A stretch of DNA of 32,000 bases from Candidatus Saccharimonadota bacterium (GCF_000300075.1 NC_018677.1:150001-182000), one strand, 5' to 3'; counted from the first letter of the stretch, positions 1,589 to 32,000 are shown. Numbers and translations are program-made. Notes: generated by a model not told the origin, from the letters alone.

Positions 1589-1946
1589 TACACTTCTTTG
1601 CAATTTACATCAATTAAAAGTTACTGTCTTGATTATTGTAGTTATGTTTGTTAAATAAAAAAATGTTGTATAAAGTGTAAAAGGCTCTTATAAAAGTTTG
1701 TTAAGTTAAATTAAGTCATGTTGAATTTATATAATATATTAATTATTAAAAATTAATGGATTTTTAAGTTACTAGATGGTTCATTTCTATATTTTTTTTG
1801 TTAGATAATTTTCGTTTTTATGCTGTTAGAGACTTTGTGTTAGTTGTGATTTTTATGTTGTTATTTATTAAAATCTGTTTTAAATTTTAGAGTTTTGAGT
1901 TTAGAGGTTTGTTTTAAAGCTTTTAGAGGTTAGTTTTTAAAAGATA

Positions 1947-2136
1947 AAAGATTAAAGATTAAAGATTTTAGAGTTTGTAGTTTGTAGTTAGAGGTTAGAG
2001 GTTAGAGGTTAGAGTTGTTAGGTTAGTGGTTCTTGGTTCTTGGTTAGTGTTTAGTGTTTAGTGGTTAGTGGTTGTGGTTGTGGTTGTGGTTGTGGTTGGT
2101 GTTGTGGTTGGTGTTAGTGTTAGTGTTAGTGTTAGA
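1947..2136. repeat. compound microsatellite tract of 6-7-nt units
   Basis: Read directly: (AAAGATT)3, (GTTTGTA)2, (GAGGTTA)3, (TGGTTCT)2, (AGTGTTT)2, (GTGGTT) about 5 copies interleaved with GGTGTT, then (AGTGTT)3-4. Confidence 0.9.
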
Positions 2137-2634
2137 GTATTGCTGGAAAAAAAAGAAGAGATGGTGTATTAAAACTATATGTAAAAAAATAATACATTGG
2201 TAAGAAACAAAAAAGTTATATGTTGTAATAGTTAGATGCGAGAATTGTTATGTTAAATGGTGTGTAAATGGTTTGTTTAAGAGTTGAAACAAAATTGTTT
2301 TTTTTCGCTAAAGAATTAAAAGACTTGTTCTTATACGGTTGTATGTATTAATATGTAATATTATATAGTTATTTCAGGTAATGTTAATTAATGTTATGTT
2401 AAAAAATGTATAATTTAGTATTTGAGGTAAGGTATGTTATATATAGAAAGGTAATAGAAGTGTTTGAGGTTATATGTCTTATGTAAAAAAGTTTGTGCTT
2501 TTAAATTAGGTTTAATGCTGTAGGTTAAGAATATGATTAAAAGTTGTATTTATATAAAGTTGAAGAAAAGAAGTGTGTGGTGTAAAAAGAAAGGAGAGGT
2601 ATAAGAAGAAAAGAAGTGTGTTGGTTATGTGTTA

Positions 2635-2723
2635 AGTTTGGTTGTAGGATGTGAGAAATAAAAAACAAAAGAGTTTGGTTGTAGGATGTGAGAAATAAAA
2701 AACAAAAGAGTTTGGTTGTAGGA
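2635..2723. repeat. 37-bp tandem repeat, 2.4 copies
   Basis: AGTTTGGTTGTAGGATGTGAGAAATAAAAAACAAAAG is identical at 2635-2671 and 2672-2708. A partial third copy lies at 2709-2723. Confidence 0.95.
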
Positions 2724-2865
2724 AAAAGGTTTTGTGGAAAGCTGTGATAGGAGTGGAGAAGAAGCAAAAGTGTTAAAAGTTATTATTTGTTATAGGCAAT
2801 TAATTAATTTAAAGTTGAAATTTGTTAAAGGCTAAGTCTTTTGATAGCAAACATTGTATAAAATT

Positions 2866-2951
2866 GCCGAGCTGGTGAAAATGGTATACACGCAGGTTTT
2901 AGATGCCTGTGTCATAAGAATGACTTGGGGGTTCAAATCCCTCGCTCGGTA
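2866..2951 (+). tRNA. tRNA-Leu (anticodon UAG), class II with long variable arm
   Basis: Hand-folded cloverleaf. Acceptor GCCGAGC/GCTCGGT with G1-U72. Anticodon stem CAGGT/GCCTG with loop TTTAGAT. Variable-arm hairpin GTCAT-AAGA-ATGAC. T arm GGGGG-TTCAAAT-CCCTC. Discriminator A. No encoded CCA. Confidence 0.85.
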
Positions 2952-2990
2952 AAATATTGGTATAGGAAAAATAATATTAAAAATAATAGA

Positions 2991-3476
2991 TTGATTGAAG
3001 TGGATTGTGAAGGTTTTTTAAAAAGTATAAAGAATTGGAGTCCTTATGTGGGATACATAATAGCAAATAAAGAAGGCCGTAAACTTCATAAACCGCACTG
3101 GGAAATAATATTGTTATTACGTAAATTTTACGAAACATATAAAATAGCACCTAATATGGTAACTTTAATAAACGAACTTAAATTTATAAATTATAAAAAG
3201 GGAAATTCGATATATTTACTTAAAGTTTTTAGATCATATAAAAAAACAATGATAAAGAAAACCACTAGCACAAATAAAAAAGATTATAAAACAAAATATA
3301 AGATGACAGTAAAAGCAAAAACCACAAAAAAAACACGTTTGTTTACATACGTGCATAAAAACACAAACATTACAAAAAAGAAAGAATATATGCTTAAACT
3401 CTATATAAATGCAGAAAGTCCTGCTCGTATTGCAGCTAGAATAGCAGGATTGCCGAAACCCAATAATTGTATGTAA
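2991..3476 (+). CDS. tusE: sulfurtransferase TusE / DsrC-family protein with a large internal Lys/Thr/Asn-rich insertion; start codon uncertain
   Basis: Matches E. coli TusE: IEVDCEGFL, HWEIILLLRKFYETYKIAPNM, KGNSIYLLKVF, and the C-terminal PARIAARIAGLPKPNNCM with the conserved penultimate Cys. The ORF-track start (2925) lies inside tRNA-Leu. There is no in-frame ATG before the conserved core. Candidate starts are ATT 2976, TTG 2991 and GTG 3000. Confidence 0.75.
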   Translation: MIEVDCEGFLKSIKNWSPYVGYIIANKEGRKLHKPHWEIILLLRKFYETYKIAPNMVTLINELKFINYKKGNSIYLLKVFRSYKKTMIKKTTSTNKKDYKTKYKMTVKAKTTKKTRLFTYVHKNTNITKKKEYMLKLYINAESPARIAARIAGLPKPNNCM

Positions 3477-3485
3477 GTATATTAA

Positions 3486-4061
3486 ATGAAGAATATGAAC
3501 AAATCAAAGATTATTATTACTAAAAGCGCACAAAAATATTTAGCTAATCTTTTATATAATCATAATATGGCAACTGGTGTTAGAATTTTTATAAACAAAC
3601 AATATGCGGAGCCTAGTATAGAATTTTGTTATAAATTAACAGATAAGGACATAAAAATAAACTTAACAAAAATAAATGTATTCTTAGAGAAAGACAGTTT
3701 GCCTTTTATAAAAAATGCTGTAATAGATTATATTATTGATAGATTGGGTGGTAAATTAACAATTCAAATACCTAAAATTGAAACAAACTGGAACTTGGAA
3801 CATAAAGTTAATTTTATAATTGATAAGGAAATTAATCCTATTTTAGCTACTCATGGTGGCTTTATTAGATTAATAAAAGTTACAAAAGAAAACCTTGCTA
3901 TATTTCAATTTGAGGGAGGATGTAAAGGATGTGTTTCAGTTGATTTTACTTTAAAAAAGCATGTTAAAAGAATTTTGTTAGAGCGTATACCAGAATTAAC
4001 AGAAATTCTTGATTTAACAGATCATACGGACAACATTAAAGCATATTACAAAAAAATATGA
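3486..4061 (+). CDS. nfuA: Fe/S biogenesis protein NfuA
   Basis: 191 aa, the same length as E. coli NfuA, and collinear with it. It has an N-terminal IscA-like half and a C-terminal Nfu domain with INPILATHGG and FQFEGGCKGC (CxxC). Confidence 0.9.
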   Translation: MKNMNKSKIIITKSAQKYLANLLYNHNMATGVRIFINKQYAEPSIEFCYKLTDKDIKINLTKINVFLEKDSLPFIKNAVIDYIIDRLGGKLTIQIPKIETNWNLEHKVNFIIDKEINPILATHGGFIRLIKVTKENLAIFQFEGGCKGCVSVDFTLKKHVKRILLERIPELTEILDLTDHTDNIKAYYKKI

Positions 4062-4477
4062 GTAACATTAAAGCTGTTCAAAAAAAAATTATAAAGGAAT
4101 TAAAGTTTTTTGATAACTGGATAGACCGTTATAAATATATACTTGATTTAGGTAAAAAATTGCCTTCAATGCCCGCTAAATGGAAAAAACCTAAATATCT
4201 TATTTCTGGTTGTCAATCTAATGTATGGATTCATCATAAATTTATTGATAATAAAGTTCATTTTATTGCTACTTCAGATGCATCAATAGTTTTAGGATTA
4301 ATTGCTATCATATTAAGAATTTATAATTATAGAAATCCAAGAGAAATTTTATCTACACCATTAGATATTGAAATGTTTGTAGATTTAGAACAACATTTAT
4401 CTATGACAAGACATAATGGATTGAAGGTTATGTTGTCACATATTTATTATATAGCATCTATCTATATAAGAACTTAG
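4058..4477 (+). CDS. sufE: cysteine desulfuration protein SufE/CsdE family
   Basis: 139 aa. It carries the SufE signature around the active Cys (ISGCQSNVWIHH versus E. coli IQGCQSQVWIV), plus SDASIVLGLIAI and HLSMTRHNGL. The start overlaps the nfuA stop (ATGA). Confidence 0.85.
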   Translation: MSNIKAVQKKIIKELKFFDNWIDRYKYILDLGKKLPSMPAKWKKPKYLISGCQSNVWIHHKFIDNKVHFIATSDASIVLGLIAIILRIYNYRNPREILSTPLDIEMFVDLEQHLSMTRHNGLKVMLSHIYYIASIYIRT

Positions 4478-4898
4478 GTGATATTATTGCTTTTTTTGCT
4501 ATGTTATTAGAATTGTTTAATAATTTGTTATAAAAACAACTAATACGTCCAGAATGACAAGAAGGGCCATATTGATCTACTTTAAATAAAAGAGTATCTC
4601 CATCACAGTCTAAATATATTTCTTTTAATAATTGTATATTTCCTGATTGTTCTCCTTTTAGCCAAGTTTTACATCTTGATCTAGACCAATAACAAACATA
4701 AATTCCAAGTTGTGTATCTAATAAAATAAATTTATTTATCCAAGCTAACATTAAGACTTCACCACTATCATATTGTTGAGTAATTACAGGTATTAACCCT
4801 TCTTGATTCCAATTTATAGATTCAATAACAATATCATTTAAATAGTTATCATCAACAATATAAAAGTCTATTGATTGAAATAAAATTCGTTGTTTCAT
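4458..4898 (-). CDS. hisI: phosphoribosyl-AMP cyclohydrolase (monofunctional HisI)
   Basis: 146 aa with GLIPVITQQYDSGEVLMLAWIN, YWSRSRCKTWLKGEQSGNIQ, LDCDGDTLLFKVDQ and PSCHSGRISCFY, all typical HisI motifs. It overlaps the sufE 3' end convergently by 20 nt. Confidence 0.9.
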   Translation of the reverse strand: MKQRILFQSIDFYIVDDNYLNDIVIESINWNQEGLIPVITQQYDSGEVLMLAWINKFILLDTQLGIYVCYWSRSRCKTWLKGEQSGNIQLLKEIYLDCDGDTLLFKVDQYGPSCHSGRISCFYNKLLNNSNNIAKKAIISPKFLYR

Positions 4899-5878
4899 AC
4901 TTTTAAAAATTTTTTAATAGATTTTTTTATAAATTCAAAATTTTTTGCTTTTGTTGTTAACAGATTCTTTACTATATTTTGCTTTTGTTAAACCGTTTTC
5001 TCAAACTTTTTCACTTTTAATACTTTTATCTATTACTTATTCACTTTTAACTTGTTTAGTACAACACTTTGTTTCTCATTTTGCCATTTATACTTTCTTT
5101 TTGTTATGTTCTGTTAAACTTTTACTTAAATTGGTCTTTATAACATAATCTTTTTTTTATTTCTTGATTTGAATTTAGTTTTTTTATAAATTTTACCTTA
5201 TTTTACTTTTTATTGGGTTTTATATACGTGTCTATTTGCCTGATGTTAACATATCTACATTGTTGTTTATTTTATTGTTTTACAATATACACCACTTTTC
5301 ATCATACAATATAAGTTTTATTCAACTTGATAACTCATACAATATAAGTTTTATTTTATACCTATTACAAAACCTATATTACACATCATTTCATTTAACA
5401 ATTTTTCAACACTTTTCTTATAACTCATACCATCATATACAACATATTCTTTTTTCCATTCCTATGAATACATCCGTTTATATAATAACCTATTTAACAA
5501 ATCAACCTTTTATCCACTAATACCTACCTTATAACACATATATTATACAATACATTACTTATAACACATCTACTTTTCTTTTCACTTTTTATATAACATC
5601 TAATTTTAAATTTAACGAAGTTACCAGCATAACAACTATTTTAAAAAACATATAAAATAAATAAAAGATCAACAATTATCAAATACACAACTATTTCTTA
5701 ACAAATAAACCTTTTACATAAACCATTTTTTCATATAGCATTTGCCTATTAAACACAAACCTTTTACACACAACAAAAAAATTTACTATTTAAAACTAAC
5801 CCACAACCTCATAAAAACATAAACAAACTACTACTAAACCCTAAACTACAAATCAAAACCTTTACATCAAACCAACAC

Positions 5879-5955
5879 CTCTAATTTTTATTGTTGTACT
5901 ACTTTAACACTTAACAACTCTAAAATTTATTGTTGTACTACTTTAACACTTAACA
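5879..5955. repeat. 39-bp tandem duplication (2 copies, 2 mismatches)
   Basis: CTCTAA(TT/AA)TTTATTGTTGTACTACTTTAACACTTAACA occurs at 5879-5917 and at 5918-5955. Confidence 0.9.
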
Positions 5956-6003
5956 CCAGAACTTAAAATCATACAAATCATTTTCCTAACACACAACTTT
6001 ATA

Positions 6004-6066
6004 AACTTCAAACTTCAAACTTCACAATTCACAATTCACAATTCACAACACACAACACACAACACA
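6004..6066. repeat. compound heptamer microsatellite (AACTTCA)3(CAATTCA)3(CAACACA)3
   Basis: Read directly from the sequence: three adjacent blocks of three copies each. Confidence 0.95.
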
Positions 6067-6682
6067 CAATACAAATTCATATCAACCATTACAACACACC
6101 TTTTCATTAGTATAGCATTACTCCTAATACAAGTTCATAATTAGTATTATAACATAAGCCATCAAAATATAAGCATATCACATAATACACAACAATATAA
6201 AATCATTTGTTTTAAAAAAAACAACAACGCCCATATTACACAATATTATTTAAACAACACAAAAAAAAGAACCTAAGAGCATAAAAAGAATAATCAAAAA
6301 ATGACCAAACAACACAATTTTTTACTACACATAATACAACAATGTTACAATCACAACACATTAAGCAAGCTCAAACACAAAGCAAATAATACAAAACACG
6401 ATTACAACGACACATAACAGTACACAAAAACTCACAAAATGCATAACAAATAAACCATCAAGTACAGAAAGCAGAACAACTAAAACATTTAACCTAAGTG
6501 CTAAACACATTTACACAAATAACCAAATAGTTATCATTTAATATTTAAATTGGTAAATACAAAAAACAACGGTATAATGCAAATTTTTAAATTAACTACA
6601 AAACAAATAAATATTAACCCACAAACACTTTTACACAAAATTTTTATTAACGAAATACATATTTTCTAACAAAACAACAATT

Positions 6683-6759
6683 CATAAACCATAAACCATA
6701 AACCACTAACCACTAACCACTAACCACTAAACACTAAACACCAAACACCAAACACCAAA
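6683..6759. repeat. compound heptamer microsatellite (CATAAAC)3(CACTAAC)3(CACTAAA)2(CACCAAA)3
   Basis: Read directly. Eleven contiguous 7-mers, with successive blocks differing by 1-2 substitutions. Confidence 0.95.
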
Positions 6760-6966
6760 CTAACTTCTTTAAACAATCATATAACTACTTTTCCTTTTAT
6801 TTATTTAACAACAAGTATTTATCAACAAGAAGTTTTAACCAAAATCGTAACACATAATACTAAACATAATTTTAAAAACCAGTTAAGTTACACAAATAAG
6901 CTAAAAATAAAAGCTTTTAAAACATACATCTTTAAAGTAAATATGTGAATAAAGATTTAACATAAC

Positions 6967-7040
6967 CGGATCGAACGGGACTTGAACCCGCGACCTTCGG
7001 CGTGACAGGCCGATGTTCTAACCAACTAAACTACCGATCC
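6967..7040 (-). tRNA. tRNA-Asp (anticodon GUC)
   Basis: Reverse complement: GGATCGGTAGTTTAGTTGGTTAGAACATCGGCCTGTCACGCCGAAGGTCGCGGGTTCAAGTCCCGTTCGATCCG. It folds as a cloverleaf, has anticodon loop CTGTCAC, and is close to E. coli tRNA-Asp. No encoded CCA. Confidence 0.9.
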
Positions 7041-7219
7041 TATTCATACCTTGTATAATTATTATAGTTATATGTGTCTGCTCTTACGGTTACATAATAG
7101 AATAGCTTGTGTTTCTTAAAGTTAAAGATAAATGCATTTGCGTACTTATAATATTGTTGCGTGATACTTTTTTGATTGATGCATTTTTGTTGTTATGGTT
7201 TTACTTTTATATATATTTT

Positions 7220-7265
7220 TTTTATGTTTTATGTTTTATGTTTTATGTTGTTGTTGTTGTTGTTG
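7220..7265. repeat. microsatellites (TTTTATG)4(TTG)6
   Basis: Read directly from the sequence. Confidence 0.95.
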
Positions 7266-7626
7266 ATATATGTATTTTGTTTTTTATTTTTGATTTAGGT
7301 TGTTATCTTATGTGTATGTTTTATTTATGGTATATGTATTTTGATATTTGCTTTAGATATTGATTTATTTTGTTTACTTTGATATGTTGTATATTTACTG
7401 TTCTTCTTTATGTTATATTTATTTTTCTTTTTTTGTATATATTTTAAATATATGTTTTTTAAAAGTTTTTGTTATTTTTAAACCATTGATGTTCGTTAGT
7501 ATTTGTTTCTCTTGTTTACTGTTACTGTATTGTGCTTTTAGTTTTTGTTTTAAACCTGCTTTTATTTGTTGCTGTATGTGCCTTTTTCGCTTTATTTTTT
7601 TTATCTTTGTATTCCTGCTTATGTAT

Positions 7627-7684
7627 GCTGTTGCTGTTGCTGTTGCTGTTTGATGTTTGATGTGTGTTTTGTGTTTTGTGTTTT
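7627..7684. repeat. compound microsatellite (GCTGTT)4(TGATGTK)2(GTGTTTT)3
   Basis: Read directly. GCTGTT is the same hexamer family (phase-shifted GTTGCT) as the array at 23585-23704. Confidence 0.9.
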
Positions 7685-7995
7685 GTATTCCTTCTTGTGT
7701 GTGTTATGTATGCTGTTTGTGTTTTGTAATATGTTTGTATTTCTCATCGTTATGTACGTTGTTTTATGTTACGATTTTTGTTGAAATTTGTTTTGTTTTT
7801 CTTTTATTAATTTAGAGTAAAGTTGTATATTGATTACAAAAAAAAATGTATAACGTGAAATATAAAAAATAGTATGTTTAAGATGTGTATGGTGTAGATT
7901 GTTGTTGTTAAATTGATTATAGCAGTAGCAGTAGCAGTATTTGCAAAAAAAAAATAGCGAAAAATGTAAGTATAAGCAAAAATATGTTATATGGT

Positions 7996-8068
7996 TGGGT
8001 GGTGCAAGATTCGAACTTGCGACATTCAGTTTGTAATACTGAAGCTCTACCAACTGAGCTAACCACCC
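7996..8068 (-). tRNA. tRNA-Val (anticodon UAC)
   Basis: Reverse complement: GGGTGGTTAGCTCAGTTGGTAGAGCTTCAGTATTACAAACTGAATGTCGCAAGTTCGAATCTTGCACCACCCA. It folds as a cloverleaf, has anticodon loop ATTACAA, and is similar to E. coli tRNA-Val(UAC). Confidence 0.9.
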
Positions 8069-8075
8069 TAGAAGG

Positions 8076-8720
8076 CTAAAAAAAATAGAAAGATAAACGA
8101 AGAAGATAAATAGAATCTGGTATACGTTCTGGATCAAAAAAAGTTGGTTTAAAACAAAGATCTCTATTAATATATAAAAAGCCTTTTCCTGTATATAAAA
8201 ATTGATTTAAAGTAAAAATATGTCTATGTGCACTATAAAACAGTGGATTTTTAATGGTTATTTTTCTTTCTTTAATTAAAGACGTAGGTATGTGCAAAAA
8301 TTGTCCTTTATTTACAAAATGGAAAATTCCTATATTATAGAGAGTTTTACTAATTTTAATACAACTAAGTATATAAGAATAGTTATAATCAAACCAAGCA
8401 CCTAAAGCTAATGCTTTTAACTTTGAAAGAAGTAAAATAGGGATATTAAAAATACATGAAATACCTTTACAAATACATTTTATTTTTTTTATATTAGTTC
8501 TATCTCCTATAGTTGTACCACAACTAATATAATTTATTTCTGATAAATCAATTTGTGTTTTATTTAAAATGCTTTTTAAAAATAAAAAAAACAAAACATT
8601 GTTTGTAGAAATATTCTTCTTATAAAAACATAGCTTGTTTATAAGAATCTTGTTTTTTAATGTATATAAAGACATAGAAAAATACGTATAAGATATATCT
8701 AATGATAAAAAATTTTTCAT
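8076..8720 (-). CDS. tsaB: probable tRNA t6A biosynthesis protein TsaB (YeaZ)-like, highly diverged
   Basis: 214 aa. Collinear weak similarity to E. coli TsaB: FLSLDISYTYFSMSL versus ILAIDTATEACSVAL, and DLSEINYISCGTTIGDRTNIKKIKCICKGIS...LKALALGAW versus [31 protein letters not shown]...LMTMAQGAW. The GPGSFTG motif is degraded. Confidence 0.5.
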   Translation of the reverse strand: MKNFLSLDISYTYFSMSLYTLKNKILINKLCFYKKNISTNNVLFFLFLKSILNKTQIDLSEINYISCGTTIGDRTNIKKIKCICKGISCIFNIPILLLSKLKALALGAWFDYNYSYILSCIKISKTLYNIGIFHFVNKGQFLHIPTSLIKERKITIKNPLFYSAHRHIFTLNQFLYTGKGFLYINRDLCFKPTFFDPERIPDSIYLLRLSFYFF

Positions 8721-8740
8721 TTGTTTATGTTAGTGATTAT

Positions 8741-9853: not shown

Positions 9854-9868
9854 TCAAAACCTTTCCTT

Positions 9869-12595: not shown

Positions 12596-12604
12596 TTTTC
12601 CTTC

Positions 12605-13480: not shown

Positions 13481-14650
13481 ATATTAACCTCTTTATTTAA
13501 AATATTATTTGTCAATTACAAGCCTACTTTTCTTTTTCGAGCAAATAACTAACATATTTTAACTTTTTGTAAATATTATTTATGCCGTATACATACAGCC
13601 ACTTTATTAGAATATACAATTGCCTTTTGTATTAATTTTTGATTCTTTTAACCTTTATTTTTAATTGTTGTATAACAACTAATTTTTGTATATAAATAGG
13701 TTCTTTTTTATTTAGTGGTATGTTATTTCTTCTGTGTTTTATGATATCTGTTTAATCTTTTCATCTGTATGATTTTTGCTTTCTGTTTTATATGTTTTTC
13801 TTTTTACTTTTTATCTGTTAGATGTTTATTTCTTTGATGTTTGATGTTTGATGTTTGATATTCTCTTTTTTCTTTGCCGTTTGTTGTTTTTTGTTTTGAG
13901 GTTAGTTATTAGAGGTTTGTTTTTTTTGATGTTGTTTGTAAGCTGTTAGAGGTAAGTTTAACTATGTTGTATCTTTTGTTAAATAGTTATTAGATGTTGT
14001 AGGATTGTTGTTAATTTATTAGATGTAAGAATTTAGATGTTGTAGGTTTGAGGTTTGATTTATTAGATGTTAAAATGTTAAATTAGTTGCTTTTTATGTT
14101 TGTTAGTTGTTAGAGGTTTGTTGAATTAGAGTTTATATGGTTTAAAAGAGTATTGTTTTTAGAAGTTTGCTTTCTTATTAGTTTTAGATATTGTTAGTTA
14201 TTGTGTTATATTAAAGAGTTTTGAAATTAATTTATTAGATGATGATGTTTGAGCTTTGCTTTATTGTTTGTTAACTGTGTATTATTAAACTAAATATACA
14301 ACATTTAAATCAATATTGTGTGGTTAGAGGAAAAACATTTGAAATTAAGAATAAAGGTATTAGAGGAAAGTTAAAAAGAAATTGTTTAAGGAATGTATTT
14401 TGTGTTTAAAGTTAGCCGTTTATAAGTTTTGTGTTTTGTGGTTAGTGTTAGAAGTTAGATAATTTGTGTTTATGTGATAGCTGTTATAATTCTAGAGATC
14501 TTGTTGTTATGTTTTGATATTTTTTGTGCTTACAATTTAGTTTTTGAGGTGTTGTTTGAGCTTAATTTTAATAATTTGTATTTTTTTTGTATTTCTTCTT
14601 TTATCTTTGTACAACTCTTTAATTTTCTTTTTAATTACTACAAACTTACA
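13481..14650. other. non-coding spacer arm, C-depleted (G/T/A-rich) on the + strand
   Basis: Hand count finds no C in 13974-14089. The motifs TTAGATGTT and TTAGAGGTT recur. There is no credible ORF. Confidence 0.85.
13835..13855. repeat. microsatellite (TGATGTT)3
   Basis: Read directly from the sequence. Confidence 0.9.
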
Positions 14651-16517
14651 AACAACAAGAAACAAATCAACCTCTAACAACTAACAACTAACAACTAACA
14701 ACTAACTACTAACTTCTAAATCCTAAATCCTAAATCCTAAATCCTAAATCCTCTACTAACTAACAACTAATAAAAGCAAACCTTTTAACCCTTTTAACAA
14801 CTTTTACTCTAAACTCTAACAATCCAACATCTAAACCATCTAAACTAGCTAACTTCTAATAATTAATAAAACAACCTCTTTTTTACCACCTCTCATCAAC
14901 AAACCTACAATTTTTCTTTTTTTTTATCAACATCTACTTAACCACTTTCAAACTATTTACCTACAACTCTTTCTACTATCCTCTAACCTTTTGCTACAAC
15001 CAATTACCTCTAATTAATTACACTCTATTCCTTTCTTTTCTTACAACACTACTTTTTTTTTTCAAAACTTCCCTATTATAACTTTTATACAACATCATTT
15101 TTTATATCTTACCTCTAACATTATTTGTTACTAATACAACATATAACTTAGTCTCAAAATAAATAAACAAACCTCTAATTTAAATAACAAATAACAGATA
15201 AGAAAACAAACCTCTAACCGTTAATAAATAAACTACAAATAAAACATCTATTTAATATACAATTTTATACAAATTATGCTTTATATATACAAACTACAAA
15301 CTCAAATTAAACAGCATCTAAATTAACTGTTTTTAATACAACTTATAGGGATATATATGAACTAATAAGAAAAACCATAATATAATACAACAACTAACAA
15401 AAAAGAATAATAAACCTCCACTATACAATATATAAATTAGAGCAACAACAATAAACAACTCCATAACATATAAACTCAAACAAGCAAAAAAAACAAGGCT
15501 ATAACATACACCATCAACTGAATAGAATAACATTATACAACACATTATTTAATAAGGCATACAAAAGTTATAAAAGTATATAACATAAAAGCAGAAGAGC
15601 AGAAAAGCAGAAGAAAAAAAGCAAGAAAAACCATCAAACTCTTAAAAAACATCAGAACTCAAACATACAAAATAAAAAGTAAAAAACATATAAAAACTCA
15701 AACATACAAACTAAAAAAAATAAACGACATCTAAATTCTAATTTCTAAACTCTAAAAGCTTAACAACATATTAAAATACATATATTAAGCATAAAAAAAA
15801 AGAAACAGAAAACTTAAACGCATAAGCGGAAAACATATTCTAATATAAGATTTAATACAAACCAAAAGAAAGAAATCATATTTAAATACTAACAACAAAG
15901 CACGTAAAGTGTACATACTAGCAAATATAATCAATAAAACAAAAAACCAACTAATTATAAACCTACATAACTAATAATCCTAACTATTATGTATATAAAT
16001 AAAACAACAATAATTCATAAAACACCTATCACTTATAACCTAACATAATATAAATACCAACATATACATAATAAAACAAAAACCTCAAAAACATAATGCT
16101 CAAACTATAACTTATATAAACAAAGAAATAACAAAATAAATAACAATCTAAACTAACAAACAAAATGATAACTTATAAAACACAATCATATAAAGAAAAA
16201 GAAAGTAAAAAAAATCAATCATAAACACCGACCATTTATCCTAACAACAAAACTTTTAACTTAAGCATAATAACAAACCCATTTAACAACATCCATGTAA
16301 ACAAATACATTTAACACAAAATAATAATAATGAAACCTAACTACAAAACCAATATCAAAGTCTTTTAATTACTTTTATTTTATTGAAAATGAACCTTAAT
16401 TAATCATAAAGATAAAAAGCTTAAGCATTAAAAAACTTTCAACAATTTATCTTTCAAACCCAATCCAATGAGAACGTTAGTAAATCTGTTAATTTTTTAA
16501 GCAAAACAGATACTATT
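14651..16517. other. non-coding spacer arm, G-depleted (A/C/T-rich) on the + strand
   Basis: Hand count finds no G in 14660-14775, 14849-14992 or 14994-15126. It carries reverse-complement versions of the motifs seen in the left arm (AACATCTAA, AACCTCTAA). Confidence 0.85.
14674..14750. repeat. compound heptamer microsatellite (CTAACAA)4 CTAACTA CTAACTT (CTAAATC)5
   Basis: Read directly. It lies just right of the polarity switch at about 14650. Confidence 0.95.
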
Positions 16518-18062: not shown

Positions 18063-18170
18063 AATAATCCTACATGATTAACGATTTTATATTTCCGTAC
18101 TATAAGTAAACTTTAAGCACGACCCATATTATATTAAAATATTTTATTCAATTAAGCTACTGATCTTTCC

Positions 18171-19490: not shown

Positions 19491-19495
19491 ATTAC

Positions 19496-20575: not shown

Positions 20576-20579
20576 TTTT

Positions 20580-23105: not shown

Positions 23106-23135
23106 ATATTTTGTTTTATTTTTTGTTAACTTCAA

Positions 23136-23731
23136 TTAGCTATGTTTAAATACATCTGTATAACTAAGTTAATAACTGTTGAAAATGTAGTGATTTGTTA
23201 TTGATGTACATAGTATTTTGTATACATTATTAATATTTGTATTTGTTTTACTTATTATTTTTGTTAAACTGTTTTAGTACTTGGCAGTTATCAGTTATAT
23301 ATACTTATTTAATAAATGATTTCGGTTTAAAAATCTATATATATCTTTAATTTTTATATAGTATTGCCTTTTCTTGTTCATTTCTTATTGTTTACTATTC
23401 TTTAACTTTTTTTTTTATGTTAAGTTACAGAAATTCTTGTTTTTTTTATTTTAAGCTGGTATTTATTTGTTTTTTACGGTTTATATTAGTATTAGTATTA
23501 GTTAGGTATCGCTGTGAACTTTACCCGGTAATAAGATAGAATAGTTGCTATTAAGGTATTATGGTATGTTTTAGTAGTTACACAGTTACAGTTACAGTTG
23601 CCGTTGCCGTTGCCGTTGCAGTTGCCGTTGCCGTTACAGTTGCAGTTGCAGTTGCAGTTGCCGTTGCAGTTGCAGTTGCCGTTGCCGTTGCCGTTGCCGT
23701 TGCTAAAATATTATTAAAAGTATAATATAAA
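23136..23731. other. non-coding spacer, T/G-rich on the + strand (asymmetry less extreme than other spacers)
   Basis: No credible ORF. It contains (ATTAGT)3 at 23485-23502 and the 20-unit hexamer array. Confidence 0.75.
23585..23704. repeat. 20-unit hexanucleotide array GTTRCN (GTTACA, GTTGCC, GTTGCA, GTTGCT interleaved)
   Basis: Unit order read directly: ACA ACA GCC GCC GCC GCA GCC GCC ACA GCA GCA GCA GCC GCA GCA GCC GCC GCC GCC GCT, each preceded by GTT. It is locally about 50% GC in an AT-rich context. Confidence 0.95.
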
Positions 23732-26146
23732 TTATACATTCTTATACTGACTAATTATGCTAATTATAAAAACCTTAAGATTAATATTAAAAGCTTTAAA
23801 CAAGCTTAATGCTTCTTTTTTATATTCTTCTATAGGTTTTTTTTGGATATAATATCGAAGATGAATACTATTCATTATATAATCCATATTTTGCAGATGT
23901 TCTTTCCATTTTATATCAATTATTTGTAATATGGTATTTTTTTCAAAAAGTTTGATTCTTTGTTTACCAAATTTTTTACAATTATATATATAATTCGTTG
24001 TATACTTATCTTTTAGTTTTTTTTTAACGAAAATATACCCTGTATCTGATGAGAGCATATATTTATTTTTTTTAATCCATTTATAGATATTTAAATTTAA
24101 AATTGTTTTTATATTATCTTCAAATTTATCTATATTCGAATTGTTTTTATAATCACATATAATTTTACAAATTACTTCTTTAATAGTTGTTGTTATATAT
24201 TCAGCAAAATTCTGATTAAATAAAATGGCATCTCTTTGATGATATACAATTTTTCTATGGTAACTTGAAATCTTTTCATATTTTAATAGTTGTTTACGTA
24301 TGGCAAACTTATGACTTTCTATATTATTTTGAGCCTGTTCTAAAGCCTTATTAACTATTTTGTGTGATATAGATTCACCATAAGCTAAGCCTAAAATCTG
24401 AATCATTTTTTTAAGTCTATTCGAACAAACAACTCTCATTAACGTGTCTTCTAGAGCTACAAAAAACCTATTAGAACCTGGTTCTCCTTGCCGACCTGCC
24501 CGTCCTTTAAATTGATTATCAATTCTTCTTGATTCATGGTGTTCTGTTCCTATAACATGTAAACCGCCAGAAAGTTTAACCAAGTGTTTGTTAAATAGGT
24601 TTTGTTTGGTTCCACCTAAACTTATGTCAGTGCCTCTGCCTGCCATTTTTGTTGCTATAGTAATTGTGCTATATCGACCAGCTTTTGAAAGAATATTAGC
24701 TTCATAAGAATGATTGTTTGCATTAAGTACATTATGTGATATTTTGTGAAAATTTAATATACAAGACAAATATTCTGAAAAAATTATTGAAGTAGTACCC
24801 ACTACTAATGGACGGCCTTTATAAAGTTTATTTTTTATATCTTTAACAATAGCTTCAAATTTTTCTTTAAAAGAAAAAAATATTAGATCATTCATATCTT
24901 TACGGATTATAGGCTTGTTAGTTGGAATAACTAATACATCTAGTTTATAAACTTTCTTAAATTCGTACGCTTCAGTGAGTGCTGTTCCTGTCATTCCTGT
25001 GATTTTTGAATAAAGTCTAAAAAAATATTGTAAAGTAATATATGCCAAAACATTACCGTCTTGTTTTATCTTTACTCCTTCTTTTGCTTCTATAGCTTGA
25101 TGTAATCCGTCTGACCATCTTTTACCTGGAATAACACGTCCTGTATTTTCATCTACTATAATTATTTCTTTATTAATAATAAGATAATCAACATTTTTTT
25201 TAAATAAATATAGTGCTAATAAAGCTGCTTTTATCTTTTTTACAAAATCTATATTATTAACTGAATAAAGCGAATCAGAGCTTTTTATTATTTGTTTTGA
25301 TTTTAAAATAAATTCTATATATTTGTGTCCTTGTTCAGTTAAATAAACTTGTTTTTGTTTTTCATCTAAAACAAAATCGCATTGTTGATGTTTATATATA
25401 TTTTTTTTATTTATTATTAATTTTTCTGCTATATTTTTAATTAAATAATATATTTGAGTACCTGAATCTAATTGTCCTGAAATTATTAATGGGGTACGAG
25501 ATTCATCTATTAAAATAGAATCTATTTCATCAAGTAAAGCAAAATTAAGTTTTCTTTGAAATTTTTCTTTTATTTCATAAGCCAAATTATTGCGTAAATA
25601 ATCAAAACCATAGTCATTGTTAGTACCAAAAGTTATATCCGCTTTATAAGCAGATATTTTTTCTTGTAATATTTGTTCAGCATATATTGTTTTTCTACTT
25701 AAACCAAGAAATTCATATAATGGACGCAGATTCTTTGAATCTCTTTTTGATAAATATTCATTTGTTGTTATTACATGGACACCATGACCTGGCAATGCAT
25801 TTAAATATGTAGGTAAAGTCCCTACAAAAGTTTTACCTTCTCCAGTTTTCATTTCAGCAACTAAACCCTTATGTAAAACAATTCCACCTATGATTTGAAC
25901 ATCAAAATGCCGTATTCCCAATATACGTTTACTAGCTTCTCGAATAGTACAAAAAGCCTCAGGCAATAACATATCAAGTAAATCACCTTTAATTATTCGT
26001 TTACGATATTCTAATGTTTTATAACGTAACAAACTATTATCAATTGAAACAAAATGATTTTCTAAATCATTTATGATATATACGATATTACATATTCGTT
26101 TTATTTCACGATCATTTTTCTTTAAAACTAACGTACTTATTAACAT
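23732..26146 (-). CDS. secA: preprotein translocase ATPase SecA (short C-terminus)
   Basis: 804 aa. PEAFCTIREASKRILGIRHFDVQIIGGIVLHKGLVAEMKTGEGKT (Walker A), LDEIDSILIDESRTPLIISG, ITLQYFFRLYSKITGMTGTA, TKMAGRGTDI and GRAGRQGEPG. It is about 100 aa shorter than E. coli SecA at the C-terminus. Confidence 0.95.
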   Translation of the reverse strand: MLISTLVLKKNDREIKRICNIVYIINDLENHFVSIDNSLLRYKTLEYRKRIIKGDLLDMLLPEAFCTIREASKRILGIRHFDVQIIGGIVLHKGLVAEMKTGEGKTFVGTLPTYLNALPGHGVHVITTNEYLSKRDSKNLRPLYEFLGLSRKTIYAEQILQEKISAYKADITFGTNNDYGFDYLRNNLAYEIKEKFQRKLNFALLDEIDSILIDESRTPLIISGQLDSGTQIYYLIKNIAEKLIINKKNIYKHQQCDFVLDEKQKQVYLTEQGHKYIEFILKSKQIIKSSDSLYSVNNIDFVKKIKAALLALYLFKKNVDYLIINKEIIIVDENTGRVIPGKRWSDGLHQAIEAKEGVKIKQDGNVLAYITLQYFFRLYSKITGMTGTALTEAYEFKKVYKLDVLVIPTNKPIIRKDMNDLIFFSFKEKFEAIVKDIKNKLYKGRPLVVGTTSIIFSEYLSCILNFHKISHNVLNANNHSYEANILSKAGRYSTITIATKMAGRGTDISLGGTKQNLFNKHLVKLSGGLHVIGTEHHESRRIDNQFKGRAGRQGEPGSNRFFVALEDTLMRVVCSNRLKKMIQILGLAYGESISHKIVNKALEQAQNNIESHKFAIRKQLLKYEKISSYHRKIVYHQRDAILFNQNFAEYITTTIKEVICKIICDYKNNSNIDKFEDNIKTILNLNIYKWIKKNKYMLSSDTGYIFVKKKLKDKYTTNYIYNCKKFGKQRIKLFEKNTILQIIDIKWKEHLQNMDYIMNSIHLRYYIQKKPIEEYKKEALSLFKAFNINLKVFIISIISQYKNV

Positions 26147-26171
26147 TAACTAAATAACCTATAAATTATTT

Positions 26172-26245
26172 TACGTCTGAAGGGATTTGAACCCTTAACC
26201 TTTACCGTCGGAGGGTAAAGCTCTATCCATTTGAGCTACAGACGT
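26172..26245 (-). tRNA. tRNA-Arg (anticodon CCG)
   Basis: Reverse complement: ACGTCTGTAGCTCAAATGGATAGAGCTTTACCCTCCGACGGTAAAGGTTAAGGGTTCAAATCCCTTCAGACGTA. Perfect 7-bp acceptor stem (A1-U72). Anticodon stem TTACC/GGTAA with loop CTCCGAC. No encoded CCA. Confidence 0.85.
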
Positions 26246-26297
26246 ATCTTTTTTCTTTTTATAAAAACACAATCTTGATATTGAGCTACAGACGTAT
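26231..26297. repeat. 17-bp direct repeat duplicating the 5' end of tRNA-Arg
   Basis: TTGAGCTACAGACGTAT occurs at 26231-26247 (inside and just beyond the tRNA) and again at 26281-26297 in the spacer, 50 bp away. Confidence 0.9.
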
Positions 26298-26353
26298 ACT
26301 TATATGAAAAACAATACTGAATATTTTTACTCTGTGTGTTTTATTTCCTTTTT

Positions 26354-27754
26354 CTAACGGACATCAATTAAATGACCAGCTATTGATGCCGCAGCCGCCA
26401 TAGCTGGACTTACTAAATGAGTTCTACCACCATAGCCTTGACGGCTTTCATAATTTCTATTCGATGTGGATGCACACCTATCCCCTAAATCTAGTTTATC
26501 AGAATTCATAGCTAAACACATTGAACAACCTGGCTCTCGCCATTCAAATCCAGCAGAAATAAATACTTCATCCAATCCTTCTAATTCCGCTTGTTTTTTT
26601 ACATAACATGAACCTGGTACAACAATAGCTTCTTTTATAGTAGCAGCAATATGATTATTTTTTAGAAAATTAGCTGCAATACGTAAATCTTCAATGCGTG
26701 AGTTAGTACATGATCCGATAAAAATACGATCAATTTTAATGTCTACTATTTTTTGTTCAGATTTTAAACCCATATATTTAATAGCTAATTCTATGTTCTT
26801 ACGGTCAGGTTTTGGATAATCTTTAGGATTAGGTATTTTTCCATTAACTCCAACCACCATATCAGGTTGCGTTCCCCAGCTTACCTGAGGTTCAATATTT
26901 TTTGCATTTATTTTTATATATTCATCAAACTTAGCATCATAATCAGAAAACAAGTTTTTCCATTTTATTATTGCTTTATTCCAAATAATGTTAGGTACTA
27001 ATGCACGCCCATGCAGATAATTACTTGCATTTTGATCAACTGAAATTAACCCAACTTTTGCTCCTGCTTCAATTGCCATATTACATATGGTCATTCTACC
27101 TTCCATAGACAATGTTTTAATTGTACTACCTGTAAATTCTACTGCATATCCTGTGCCTCCATCTGTACTAATAATGTTTATGATTGACAAGATTAAATCT
27201 TTTGCAGTTACTTTTACTGATAACTCTCCATTAATACAAACTTTCATATTTTTTAATTTACGTTGTAACAAACATTGTGTTGCTAATACATGTTCTACTT
27301 CTGAGGTTCCAATACCATAGGCTAAAGCCGCAAAAGCACCATGTGTAGATGTATGAGAATCGCCACAAACAACAGTCATTCCTGGTAAAGTTGCACCAAT
27401 TTCTGGTCCTATAACATGTACAATACCTTGTCTAACATCTTTTATGTTAAAAAACTTATTTATTAAAAAATCTTTACAATTTTTTTTTAACAAATTTATT
27501 TGAATACGAGAAAGTTCATCTTTTATACCATGTATACGTTCTTCTACGTTTGTTGGTACGTTATGATCAACAGTAGCAATGTTTGTATCAACCCTCCAAA
27601 TTTTACGCTTATTTAAACGTAAACCGTCAAATGCTTGAGGCGAGGTTACTTCGTGTAGTAAATGACGATCTATATATATTAATGCCGTTCCATCTTCACG
27701 ACTTTTTATAAGATGAGCAGACCAAATTTTCTCATATAGCGTCTGTCCTGTCAT
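26354..27754 (-). CDS. leuC: 3-isopropylmalate dehydratase large subunit
   Basis: 466 aa, collinear with E. coli LeuC: [61 protein letters not shown], and the Cys ligands in GCSMCLAMN. Confidence 0.95.
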
Positions 27755-27755
27755 T

Positions 27756-28844
27756 TTAGTTAACTCCTATTTTATTTTTTACATTTACATCAATATTTTG
27801 AGCACGATTTCTTAAGAAATGATCCATTAATGTTAATGCAACCATTGCTTCAGCAATTGGTATGGCTCTAAGACCTACACAAGGATCATGGCGCCCTTTT
27901 GTAATTACTTTAATTGAATTTCCATACATATCTATAGTGTTGCCAGGTATAGTAATACTCGAAGTAGGTTTAAGGCTTAAGTTTAAAACTAATGATTGCC
28001 CATTAGAAATACCTCCTAATATACCTCCAGAATTGTTAGAAATAATTTTTTTATTTTTAATTTCGTCTCTGTGTTCACTACCTCTTTGATTTACAGATAA
28101 AAACCCAGAACCTATTTCTATGCCTTTCACTGCGTTTATACTCATTAAAGCGTGAGCTAATTCTGCATCTAATTTATCAAATACTGGTTCACCTAAGCCT
28201 ATAGGTACTCCATATGCAATTAATGTAAGTTTTGCTCCAATAGAATCTTCTTCACGTTGTAATTTTTTCATATATTTTTCTAAATAATTTATTTTATTTG
28301 GATCAGCACAAAAAAACGGATTTGTGTATACTATCTTCCAAGTTACAAAAGGTAACTTTATAGATCCTATTTGACTTATATAGCCACGTATAAACACATT
28401 TAATTTACTAAGATATTTTTTTGCTATTGCTCCAGAAGCAACTCGCATTACAGTCTCTCTTGCACTAGACCTACCTCCTCCTCTATAATCTCTAATGCCA
28501 TACTTTTGATAATATGTATAATCTGCATGAGAAGGACGAAATTGTTTTTTTATTGTTTTATAATCTTTTGAACGTTGATCTATATTTTCTATCAACAATC
28601 CAATTGGTGTTCCTGTAGTAATTCCTTTTAAAAGACCTGATAATATCTTTACTTTGTCTGGTTCTCGCCGTTGAGTAGTATATTTTGAACTACCTGGTTT
28701 TCTTCTATTTAATTGTTTTTGAATATATTTTTCACTTATTTCTATTCCTGGAGGACAACCATCTATAATAGCACCTAAAGCAAATCCATGACTTTCACCA
28801 AATGTAGTTACTGTAAACAATTTACCAAATGTATTACCTGACAT
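27756..28844 (-). CDS. aroC: chorismate synthase
   Basis: 362 aa. [20 protein letters not shown] matches E. coli [20 protein letters not shown]. Also [24 protein letters not shown] and GRHDPCVG. Confidence 0.95.
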
Positions 28845-29918
28845 ATTTTTTTACCTTTTTAACAAATTTTATTTTTTATCACAACTTACCCATACCTTTA
28901 CTCATTCCTTTCAGATTTTAGCAACTTTAACAACAAGCCTTTTTAACTGCTTTAATAACTATTTTTTATAACTACAATTCCTATTACATAGTTTTTGTTT
29001 TATTTATTTCATATAACATAAAGTTTACAAATCATTACCACATATTACTTTTTTCAGATCTTATAAAAATAACCTTACAACTGTTTAAGTTATTACAACA
29101 AACTAACACATTATCTAGTTCTCTTTTTATTATCATAATAAAAAACTACCGTTTTACAACAAACTAAACTAACACATATTACTTTTTCCTTTTATACTTT
29201 CATAACGGCCTTTATTCAAATGTTCCTTTTTTTAGAACATATCTTACACTTATCACAAACTACGCCTCACTTCCTTTAAACTCGCATAACAACTTTTACC
29301 TATACTCATATTTTTTTCGTTTATCATATTGTATTTTAACTCTATGTCTTAACAAAAAACTTTTGGCATAAATAAACTACCACTTAACCTTTAACAACAA
29401 CCAAATACTATCTTTTAACATCAATTTAATCTATCGCATAAACACTACACCATTTCCTTTTTGTTATATACAAACTTTTACTTTATTTTAGCATTTACCT
29501 ATTAAACACCTTTACTACAAACTATACTTCTAATACCAATCCTCTTACATACTTCTTTACGCTTCAACTACCCTTTTTAACCATTTATACATGCCGTTAA
29601 TAACACAATACAACTAGTTTTACTATATACTAACAAACACCACACCGTTTAACACAAATCAAACTACACTGCCCATCAAACATCAAAATCTACTTGTTAC
29701 CAGCTTACATACATATTACACAAAAACACAAAACATAAATGCTTGCACAAAAACACCTTTACCTATCACCTCTTTTATTTTTCATAAAAACAAGTTATAT
29801 AAACAACTTTAGCTGTTAACATTTAACCATTTAACTATACATTAATATAACCAATATACCGTATAAAACAAAGATAAAACATAAACACATCAAAAACCAA
29901 ACATAAATTATAAATTAT

Positions 29919-29974
29919 CTAACTGCTAACTGCTAACTGCTAACATCTAACATCTAACATCTAACATCTAAAAA
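29919..29974. repeat. compound heptamer microsatellite (CTAACTG)3(CTAACAT)4 CTAAAAA
   Basis: Read directly from the sequence. Confidence 0.95.
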
Positions 29975-31262
29975 ATAACCTTTATTATCTAACATCTACC
30001 CTTTTAAACAAAGCATCAAACAGCTATTAACAAACACAACACTATCAATCTATCATATTAAAAACAGCTAACACGTTTTATCTTTAACAAATACAACTAC
30101 ATTTCATAATATAAAATCATAAAAATAGATTGTTTTACACAAAAACAGCAAATACAAAATAAAACTATTATGTTGTAATACAACTAACAATACTTCTAAA
30201 AAAAAAACTACATTTTATAGAAACACAATAAACTACAACACAATATTAAATAAGTTTAATACGAAATACCAAATAACTTTGATAGTTTTGTGTACAACTT
30301 TATCTGTTAACAATTAAATTTTAACAAACCACAACACATAATACCAAGCAGCAAAGCCCAAACTGATACTAATGTTTTTTAGCGATAAACTTTTTTAATT
30401 ATAAATATTTTTTTAGCAAACAGCCTAAAATCAAAACAATTTTCATAACTGCTTACACAACTCATCCTACATCCTACCAGCAATACTGCTTGCACTTTTA
30501 CATAACACACTTTTTTTTTAAACAGCTCAGCATGTTTGCTTTTTTTTTTACAATAGCTTCACTTTTAGTCAGTCTAAATTTAAATATAACCTTTTTAAAG
30601 ATCCTACACCATTAAAGATACAACTCTAATAAATTTCATATAACCTTACATTAGTTACAGTACAAAATATAAATTACAAAACTTGTAACCGATTTAAATA
30701 CATTACAAAATTTAAACATAATATGGCATAACTGACTTCACCACATATAACGTAATATAAGTTTTTTAAAAAATAAACAAAAGAACATATTTTATTAAAC
30801 ATTTATACAACAATTTTTAACATATAACCTTAGTCATATACTATAAACTAGTGTGTATAAAAAAAAAACAGTAAAGCACAAATTTTAGAATACAATTTTC
30901 AATTACATTACCTAATACACACCAACATAAACTTTTAAACAAAAAAAATATATATTCCTGCAAAACCTTAATTTCTTGCACAATTTATTTTTTATAATAT
31001 ATATAATATTTACACTTATCTATACCTCATCCATTATGTACCAGCTCGTATAATTTCATACAGACCTATTTTTTTCCCTTAATAACATATACAGCCATAC
31101 TCCTGTATTATACACAATATTTTTATACAACTTCTTTGCTCTCTATACATTATTTAAATAACTATGTTATAAGATACACAACCGTTAACATACATCTAAT
31201 ACCCGTATTATATATAACCTATACCAATTAGCAATTAGCCGTGCTCTTACTAATCCAGCACA

Positions 31263-31316
31263 CAACTAACAACTAACAACCAACAACCGCTAACCGCTAA
31301 CCGCTAACCGCTAATG
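31263..31316. repeat. compound microsatellite (CAACTAA)2 CAACCAA CAACCG (CTAACCG)3 CTAATG
   Basis: Read directly from the sequence. Confidence 0.9.
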
Positions 31317-31508
31317 CATTACATATCCACAAAATTACAACAATTAGCATATTACAGACATAAAAACATAAAATACTATAACTTAACAAAGATGATTCAG
31401 CCTACAACATTATTCTAATTATTTTTTGTTTAACTAGCATAACTTAAATAAACTTTTCATGTAACATACACTTTAACACAATAATAAACTATAAACGCCT
31501 GTATACCA

Positions 31509-31562
31509 ATTTTTTGCATTATCTAATAGTTAGCATACCTATTTTTTGCATTATCTAATAGT
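31509..31562. repeat. 22-bp direct repeat, 32-bp period
   Basis: ATTTTTTGCATTATCTAATAGT occurs at 31509-31530 and at 31541-31562. Confidence 0.9.
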
Positions 31563-32000
31563 CTTGAATCTATTAACCATCATAATTTTTCAATATGTAG
31601 TATGTAATATATGCTTTGAGCTTTATGTATCGCTGTTTGCTGTTTGCTGTTTTTCTTTTAGGTGTACACATTTCCTATTCTTTATATAAAAATTTTTGTG
31701 TTGTTCAAACAACTATTTCTTTCTGTCTTTTATATAATAACTATAAATTAGTAAATAACATACATATAAGCGAATACCATAGCTACTATTTAACCTACCT
31801 ACTTTATTTAACAAATACAACTTATATTACCTACTTTATATAACATATTTAATAGATTTTAAAACTCATAAAACATAAGAATACTTAAATACTTGTGTAT
31901 AATTTTTAGGAATATAAAAGAAAAGAAAACAAAGAAAGTACAAAAGAATAGTAAAAACATATTAGTAACAAACAGTTAAAATGTAATAACAGTAAATAGT

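Follow-up and report, generated by a model that had tools for sequence, protein, structure and literature searches.

Strand segregation of G and C in the expanded intergenic spacers of Candidatus Portiera aleyrodidarum from Bemisia tabaci

By which process does one third of a segment of a tiny symbiont genome come to consist of spacers in which one strand is almost devoid of G or of C? The question is raised by the 32,000-nt stretch NC_018677.1:150001-182000 (in the following the window, that is, the whole stretch analysed), which belongs to Candidatus Portiera aleyrodidarum of Bemisia tabaci and matches CP016304 as its reverse complement, with 0 mismatches over 15,959 aligned bases and with the origin of that record falling inside the span. 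The dapA protein has the same sequence in six complete B. tabaci Portiera genomes, and other strains differ from the window by 0.7% to about 2%. Among the window's genes, pnp, tusE, nfuA, sufE, hisI, aceF, aceE, dapA, rpsA, aroA, pheA, gyrA, secA, leuC and aroC, together with four tRNA genes, lie seven intergenic blocks which amount to 10,689 bp or 33.4% of the window, in agreement with the about 11 kb and one third given in a preliminary description of this DNA.

In five of these blocks the rare base accounts for 3.5-7% and its complement for 16-23% of the positions, in the block cores for 2.5-7% and 17-24% respectively, and in 400-nt windows the GC skew reaches extremes of +0.86 and -0.90. 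The longest G-free run of the window comprises 162 nt and the longest C-free run 147 nt, among fifteen runs of at least 100 nt, compared with longest runs of 72 and 55 nt on average and 108 and 97 nt at maximum when the window was resampled 200 times under a first-order Markov model; in the base-free runs checked, the complement of the missing base makes up 16-41% of the run. Nine such runs had previously been delimited by hand, eight of them exactly, bounded by the missing base, and one, 7205-7307, a single position too long, since 7307 is a C and the run spans 7205-7306. Flanking genes show nothing comparable, as had been claimed: on the sense strand of 16 genes, four-fold degenerate sites carry 7.6% G and 6.0% C (G+C 13.6%, skew +0.11), and third codon positions, against which the depletion was to be gauged, have a skew of +0.22. 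The G+C content of the spacers, about 24-26% in most blocks, is nearly double that of the four-fold sites. Of the extreme base depletion originally described, the strong strand asymmetry stands, while the anomaly consists chiefly in a roughly threefold enrichment of one base, the rare base being at most moderately depleted relative to four-fold sites; the phenomenon is better described as a sorting of surplus G:C pairs by strand, G going to one side and C to the other, than as a loss of one base. The G-bearing strand is T-rich in every block (G+T 60-77%), and, as suggested before, blocks of either orientation belong to a single type of sequence, rich in G and T on one strand and in A and C on the other.

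The amount of this DNA, for which an explanation had been demanded, is a published trait of the organism. The genome of B. tabaci Portiera is 69% coding and about 30% intergenic with abnormally large intergenic regions, displays a dramatic spike of 7-bp tandem repeats as well as 7-bp indels, and undergoes frequent rearrangements for which the spacers serve as substrates, while dnaQ, dnaN, dnaX, holA, holB, mutL, ruvC and ssb are gone and the set for replication and repair has shrunk to no more than dnaE, dnaB and a mismatch-repair gene (Sloan and Moran, 2013, PMC3673631). In Singhiella simplex Portiera dnaQ is a pseudogene and 40% of the DNA is intergenic (Santos-Garcia et al., 2020, PMC7821994). 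With intergenic expansion, repeats and the inventory of lost repair genes on record, the amount of spacer DNA in the window is therefore already explained. On the other hand, a genome-wide GC-skew pattern was reported as not clear in B. tabaci Portiera (Santos-Garcia et al., 2015, PMC5322561), and the strand composition of the spacers is not described in these three studies nor in Portiera comparisons of 2023 and 2026; a full-text literature search combining Portiera with skew, strand asymmetry or transversions found nothing, which, with incomplete coverage, is absence of evidence only. Spacer amount, repeats and repair-gene losses being known already, new here appear to be the near-exclusive segregation of G and C between strands and the behaviour of its polarity, an apparently undescribed property of a known oddity, along with the coupling of G with T, a 5-bp period in Singhiella Portiera and a polarity that is kept despite sequence turnover.

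The segregation is found in spacers of either polarity. Between pnp and tRNA-Leu (1589-2864) the G/T-rich strand is the plus strand (C 3.5%, G 22.6%, GC skew +0.73), with 7-bp arrays of TTTAGAG, GTTAGAG and GTTAGTG at 1886-2135 and a 37-bp repeat in 2.4 copies at 2635-2723. The hisI / tRNA-Asp spacer (4899-6966) has its G/T-rich strand in minus orientation (plus strand G 4.5%, C 19.3%, skew -0.62) and carries 7-bp arrays at 6003-6079 and 6683-6760, with strain length differences of 7, 14, 21, 35, 42 and 59 bp, and the spacer between tRNA-Asp and tRNA-Val (7041-7995, skew +0.42) has G on a plus strand with 53% T. The dapA / rpsA spacer is divided by a sharp polarity switch at about 14640-14660, no gene separating the halves: the dapA-side half (13481-14650, G/T-rich strand plus, skew +0.41) is unskewed over the roughly 200 bp nearest dapA and has a lag-7 identity of 0.445 against about 0.36 at other lags, and the rpsA-side half (14651-16517, G/T-rich strand minus, G 4.4%, C 19.1%, skew -0.63) contains CTAACAA and CTAAATC arrays at 14674-14773. 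The last block had been taken to end at 31600, which has to be corrected, as it belongs to the divergent csp / aroC spacer of 4.78 kb in all, whose aroC-side part occupies 28845-32000 (G-rich strand minus; over 28845-31600 G 5.1%, C 20.2%, skew -0.60) and of which about 1.6 kb lies past the window end; its polarity switches beyond the window end, at a point that corresponds to about 32.7 kb on the numbering used here, and the gene next to each half has the G-rich strand as its sense strand. Skews of -0.51 and -0.60 were measured in two more B. tabaci Portiera spacers just outside. Rightly set apart from the extreme blocks from the outset, the short gyrA / secA spacer (23136-23731, plus) has a mild skew of +0.19. 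Its hexamer array of CAGTTG/CCGTTG in about 20 copies (23583-23703) has G and C on one strand, in contrast to the 7-bp arrays. The annotated length of gyrA varies among strains (841 versus 848 amino acids).

That the blocks are non-coding is supported by four spacer open reading frames (ORFs) without a match among NCBIfam families and by an Rfam scan which returned the four tRNAs and nothing else. Homology searches, proposed as a way to recognize decayed pseudogenes, uncovered no remnants: in tblastn, DnaX, Gnd, RpsF, RplI and an ABC transporter of a compact relative gave no hit in the B. tabaci and Singhiella spacers at E values up to 5. The spacers have grown in place. The gap between tRNA-Val and tRNA-Asp measures 7 bp in the compact Pealius mori Portiera, 12 bp in Singhiella simplex Portiera and 955 bp in the window and, judged from these sequences, this spacer arose de novo, without gene loss. 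In Pealius mori Portiera dnaX lies directly upstream of dapA; in Singhiella Portiera this position is taken up by 5 kb of 5-bp repeats, in B. tabaci Portiera by the 3-kb dapA / rpsA spacer. Beside tRNA-Val, a 214-amino acid ORF (8076-8720, minus strand) that belongs to no NCBIfam or Pfam family is conserved in three Portiera lineages, with homologues of 219 amino acids in Singhiella (69% identity to the Pealius protein) and 221 amino acids in Pealius (55% to the window protein); the ORF is a genuine gene without a known function.

Counted along the window, blocks 1, 2, 3, 4, 5 and 7 contain period-7 arrays and block 6 a period-6 array according to Tandem Repeats Finder, and autocorrelation yields identity peaks at lags 7, 14 and 21 in every skewed block and at lag 6 in the mildly skewed one. 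The phase coherence of the repeats is gone within about 25-40 bp, and the spacers are therefore mosaics of short arrays. Indels and substitutions were surveyed over about 21 kb aligned among six B. tabaci Portiera genomes, with the sister clade used for polarising; lookups with aroC, sufE and leuC for further genomes of this outgroup clade returned none, and hisI added one genome with almost no cleanly aligned spacer substitutions. Spacers harbour 62 of the 64 indels, the inserted or deleted sequences are repeat units, and lengths of 7 bp (8 events), 14 bp (4) and 21 bp (5), also 28, 35 and 42 bp, are enriched. Head-to-tail periodicity, length polymorphism in multiples of the unit and growth in place are the properties of satellite-like DNA.

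Related lineages extend these observations. Contig k141_124100 of ENA ERZ27294174 (58,963 bp, here L038) represents a Portiera lineage with an aroC 91% identical to that of the window and with the local genes arranged as in the window, secA and leuC being neighbours in the Bemisia-type fashion; its host is probably a non-tabaci Bemisia or a close relative. The spacers of L038, 2-2.7 kb in length, have skews of -0.60 to -0.70 and a lag-7 peak in all cases, and one of them changes from -0.9 to +0.9; the csp / aroC spacer contains a polarity switch in L038 as it does in B. tabaci Portiera. The orthologous gyrA / secA spacer measures 2 kb with a skew of -0.70 in the orientation of L038, which is reverse-complemented relative to the window, and this corresponds to the same polarity. 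Genes of B. tabaci Portiera and L038 are 86-88% identical; the alignment of orthologous spacers that had been recommended was not achievable, though position, period and polarity are kept at three of three orthologous spacers. Five spacers of Singhiella Portiera (1.7-6 kb) attain skews of 0.8-1.0 per 300 nt and have a strong 5-bp period (lag-5 identity 0.51-0.59), with units including GTTAT and GTAAT. A word family common to the B. tabaci and Singhiella lineages was considered and rejected, 6-mer spectra being no closer than those of dinucleotide-matched resamples; an enrichment of GTTAG in B. tabaci Portiera and in L038 has no counterpart in Singhiella Portiera, and TTAGG, present in short runs in a Singhiella spacer, is not enriched over the dinucleotide expectation. 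Of the proposed runaway slippage or duplication of a few seed motifs, slippage or duplication is borne out by the lag-7 periodicity, the 62 indels in spacers and the 955-bp tRNA spacer, while seed motifs are insufficient, as a lineage with a 5-bp period and other words has the same composition.

The polarity of the segregation follows no simple rule of gene direction, as had been observed: the earlier count, by which the upstream gene has the G-rich strand as its sense strand in 4 of the 7 window blocks, is right, and three segments outside bring it to 5 of 10 B. tabaci Portiera segments. Over some 52 kb the polarity changes six or seven times, at times within a spacer without a gene at the switch, and the skew at four-fold sites of nearby genes does not go with that of the adjacent spacer, so that a regional replication or transcription bias acting on all DNA is excluded. 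Nor is there one polarity per replichore, shared by neutral gene sites and switching at the origin or terminus, as in a replication-associated skew. An inverted duplication at the polarity switch was considered, the inverted matches of blocks 4 and 5 sharing a centre near 14.7 kb, and was rejected, as the best alignment of the two G strands scores 74 and shuffles of 7-mer chunks reach 84. Long homology between blocks was not found beyond a variant of the GGTTAGT type common to blocks 1 and 2 (80-88% over 40-65 nt). This GGTTAGT/AACCACT-type array occurs at 2009-2073 and 6708-6772, in two spacers 4.6 kb apart and in opposite orientation, and its 80-88% complementarity over 40-65 nt makes it a possible substrate for the reported inversions. 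Rho loading sites, R-loops and G-quadruplexes were likewise discarded, with polarity inconsistent relative to upstream genes, GG depleted and a transcript of the G strand that would be U-rich.

Substitutions among strains (window 2605-23480) are almost all transversions, chiefly A<>T, G>T/C>A and T>G/A>C, which is unusual for a bacterium. Within genes, 10 transitions were counted among 96 differences; for non-genic DNA, two further pairwise comparisons gave 12 among 71. The transversion excess, of which no published report in Portiera was found, may be the mark that replication leaves when proofreading or base-excision repair is lacking. Among 70 polarised changes in spacers, one was C>T, two were G>A and four A>G; with C>T and G>A at just 3 of 70, cytosine deamination is unlikely as the current driver. 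Strand-specific deamination, among the origins initially envisaged, is poorly supported also in view of the share of transitions in genes, only about 10%, and of four-fold sites which do not share the spacer polarity. On the G-rich strand, with counts that are small and a low-complexity alignment that is error-prone, so that some events are possibly artefacts, T>G occurred 17 times versus 4 times for A>C, and C>A 6 times versus 10 times for G>T (358 C sites and 1,217 G sites), and A>T exceeded T>A per site (p = 0.07). Maintenance of the skew by substitution is thus a lead, not a result. The density of substitutions, obtained with different filters, is about 1.5% at strictly aligned spacer sites versus about 1.15% at all third positions. 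Templating of substitutions by neighbouring units was rejected, the base at +/-7 matching the derived state in 30 and the ancestral state in 41 cases, and lags of 1, 2, 5, 6 and 14 gave no excess. Contexts of a proofreading-deficient polymerase, read manually, were not enriched (T>G in TTT 4 of 15, C>A in TCT 1 of 5) and are rejected on present data.

We consider it moderately probable that the spacers are satellite-like DNA which grew by local slippage and duplication and whose polarity was inherited locally. Such mosaics of short, quickly decaying arrays, with 7-bp units or, in the Singhiella lineage, 5-bp units, would have grown in place, through slippage during replication and through duplication of nearby DNA, in a branch of Portiera that has lost polymerase proofreading, clamp, clamp loader, MutL and SSB. 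A unit of 5-7 nt taken from an AT-rich genome would have one or two G/C bases only, so that G and C would lie on different strands of an array from its beginning; as new DNA would be copied from its neighbour in direct orientation, polarity would be inherited locally and be coherent over kilobases, switching only where a rearrangement joins spacer halves of different origin. This account builds on the growth in situ, periodicity, indels in multiples of the unit, lack of gene remnants, rapid turnover and gene-independent polarity observed here; that polarity is inherited locally we infer.

Several observations weigh against slippage and local duplication as the whole explanation. Recognisable arrays cover just 6-32% of each block according to Tandem Repeats Finder, and the array-free remainder is still skewed (0.55-0.63 in the large blocks 1, 2, 5 and 7), with a clear lag-7 signal in blocks 4 and 5 only; over most of the length of each B. 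tabaci block, repeats can no longer be made out. The founding and copying of arrays would by itself pair G with a T-rich or an A-rich strand at random, yet T exceeds A on the G strand in 20 of 20 skewed segments, across lineages with different unit lengths and words, and the convergence of two lineages with different units on the same composition is not accounted for. In third positions of genes the per-site rate from G:C to A:T is about eight times the reverse, so that a relic excess of G should decay, and no decay is visible: on the G strand, 21 gains of G stand against 12 losses (8 versus 3 in the strictly aligned subset). In the strict subset C>A affected 5 of 301 sites versus 3 of 854 for G>T (Fisher p = 0.03), that is, G disappears faster from the C-rich strand, where it is rare, while founding and copying predict equal loss per site. 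Neither the constant coupling of G with T nor the seeming maintenance of the skew by substitutions is explained by this best-supported account.

An addition to this account, or a rival of it, would be a process of substitution or fixation that is peculiar to the spacers, differs between the strands, and both makes and keeps the skew, for example through long single-strand exposure without SSB, with slippage supplying length only; this we regard as possible, though with clearly limited confidence. The G strand is T-rich in every segment, as in bacterial leading strands, and the heavy strand of vertebrate mitochondria shows the same coupling of G with T. Three comparisons of complementary pairs all favour maintenance of the skew (17:4; p = 0.03 in the clean subset; p = 0.07), gains of G are at least as frequent as losses even with G about threefold above its level at four-fold sites, and polarity is kept between B. 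tabaci Portiera and L038 despite complete turnover of the sequence. Still, with a sense-strand match in 5 of 10 segments and six or seven flips in about 52 kb, no strand-defining process fits, four-fold sites of adjacent genes lack the spacer polarity, deamination-type transitions are rare in the spacers, the tests for TTT and TCT contexts and for copying from neighbouring units were negative, and the counts are small and drawn from an error-prone alignment of low-complexity DNA. A stronger form of this idea, which we hold to be rather unlikely, sees the segregation not as a by-product of repeats but as the signature of asymmetric synthesis or damage by a replisome of DnaE and DnaB, presumably host-aided and working without proofreading, clamp, clamp loader, primase and SSB. 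If it were true, the spacers would record which strand was copied or exposed while DNA was added, and a polarity map would show how a stripped-down genome replicates. Differential survival of repeats, likewise conceivable as an addition, by which arrays with G and C on one strand would form hairpins without SSB and be deleted and segregated arrays would persist and expand, we judge to be distinctly doubtful. It would agree with the loss of ssb from the lineage (PMC3673631), with the same composition of two lineages with different units and with the folding of 150-nt single strands under DNA parameters, which gave -3.6 kcal/mol for spacers, -9.1 for strand-symmetrised versions of the same G+C content and -8.0 for genes. 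However, the spacers fold like their own shuffles (-3.57 versus -3.42, p = 0.84), and the weak folding is therefore due to composition alone and no independent test; the coupling of G with T is left unaccounted for, and arrays with C on the G strand do exist, such as CAGTTG/CCGTTG.

Selected functional elements, be they insulators free of start codons or rich in stop codons, Rho loading sites, R-loops or replication-priming zones, are very improbable. The conserved position and polarity in B. tabaci Portiera and L038 could be read in their favour, as could the sequence itself, since a G-free strand would offer no ATG, GTG or TTG and a C-free strand would be rich in stop codons. Against them stand the complete turnover of the sequence, extensive length polymorphism among near-identical strains, a substitution density at least at the level of third positions and a polarity that disagrees with upstream read-through in half of the cases; moreover, GG dinucleotides are under-represented (odds of 0.73 in B. 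tabaci Portiera and 0.49 in Singhiella Portiera), which makes G-quadruplex-type structures unlikely. Selection for a sequence-specific function is thus unlikely, and the structural role that had been entertained finds no support in spacers which turn over fully between lineages with 86-88% identical genes. Least of all can the blocks be ordinary decayed pseudogenes of lost genes. It is true that several spacers sit at sites of gene loss or rearrangement, such as the dnaX site upstream of dapA, but tblastn detected no remnant of dnaX or of ancestral neighbours there, one spacer grew between adjacent tRNA genes without gene loss, the G+C content exceeds that of four-fold sites, skews of 0.6-0.9 are far above those of coding DNA, and the period is 7 or 5, not 3; for the blocks examined, a pseudogene origin is effectively refuted.

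Two observations concern neighbouring genes. In CM014390, pheA (2881-3959 of the aligned stretch) is split into two pieces of 88 and 241 amino acids, the gene being intact with 359 amino acids elsewhere, which reflects either a strain frameshift or an assembly error. The longest ORF of tusE (2925-3476) begins with the TTG at 2925, inside the 3' part of tRNA-Leu (2865-2952); the true start probably lies downstream of the tRNA, other annotations giving 142-158 amino acids.

Ancient insect symbionts as a rule have compact and stable genomes; the textbook counterexample is Portiera of Bemisia, and the growth of its spacers has been left unexplained beyond the loss of dnaQ. A uniform, extreme and lineage-independent strand composition with a polarity that is probably inherited locally is a signature which any mechanism of growth must reproduce. 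It also accounts for the published lack of a clear GC-skew pattern in B. tabaci Portiera, as a third of the genome has strong local skews of arbitrary sign.

Among known systems, the expanded microsatellite-rich intergenic regions of Portiera (PMC3673631, PMC5322561, PMC7821994) are the same object as the spacers of the window, those of Singhiella simplex being even larger; their published features are reproduced by the present analysis, and in these studies skew refers to the genome-wide pattern only, said to be lost in B. tabaci Portiera. Bacterial replication asymmetry and the heavy and light strands of vertebrate mitochondria share with the spacers the coupling of a G/T-rich with an A/C-rich strand in the same direction, whereas the spacer skew is far larger (0.6-0.98), confined to spacers and flips many times in 52 kb, and recent changes in Portiera are mostly transversions, not transitions of the deamination type. 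Telomere-type repeats likewise have G/T-rich units of 5-7 bp and a C-free, G/T-rich strand, but the spacers contain many units, are poor in GG and are internal to a circular genome. Eukaryotes possess simple-sequence satellites with heavy and light strands, for example those of Drosophila virilis with 7-bp units (ACAAACT and related sequences). The spacers resemble these in units of 5-7 bp, G on one strand, growth by slippage or unequal exchange, fast turnover and broken intrastrand parity; they differ in being mosaics of very short, degenerate arrays instead of long homogeneous blocks, and in having arisen between the essential genes of a 350-kb bacterial endosymbiont genome, in a cell without the usual recombination and repair machinery.

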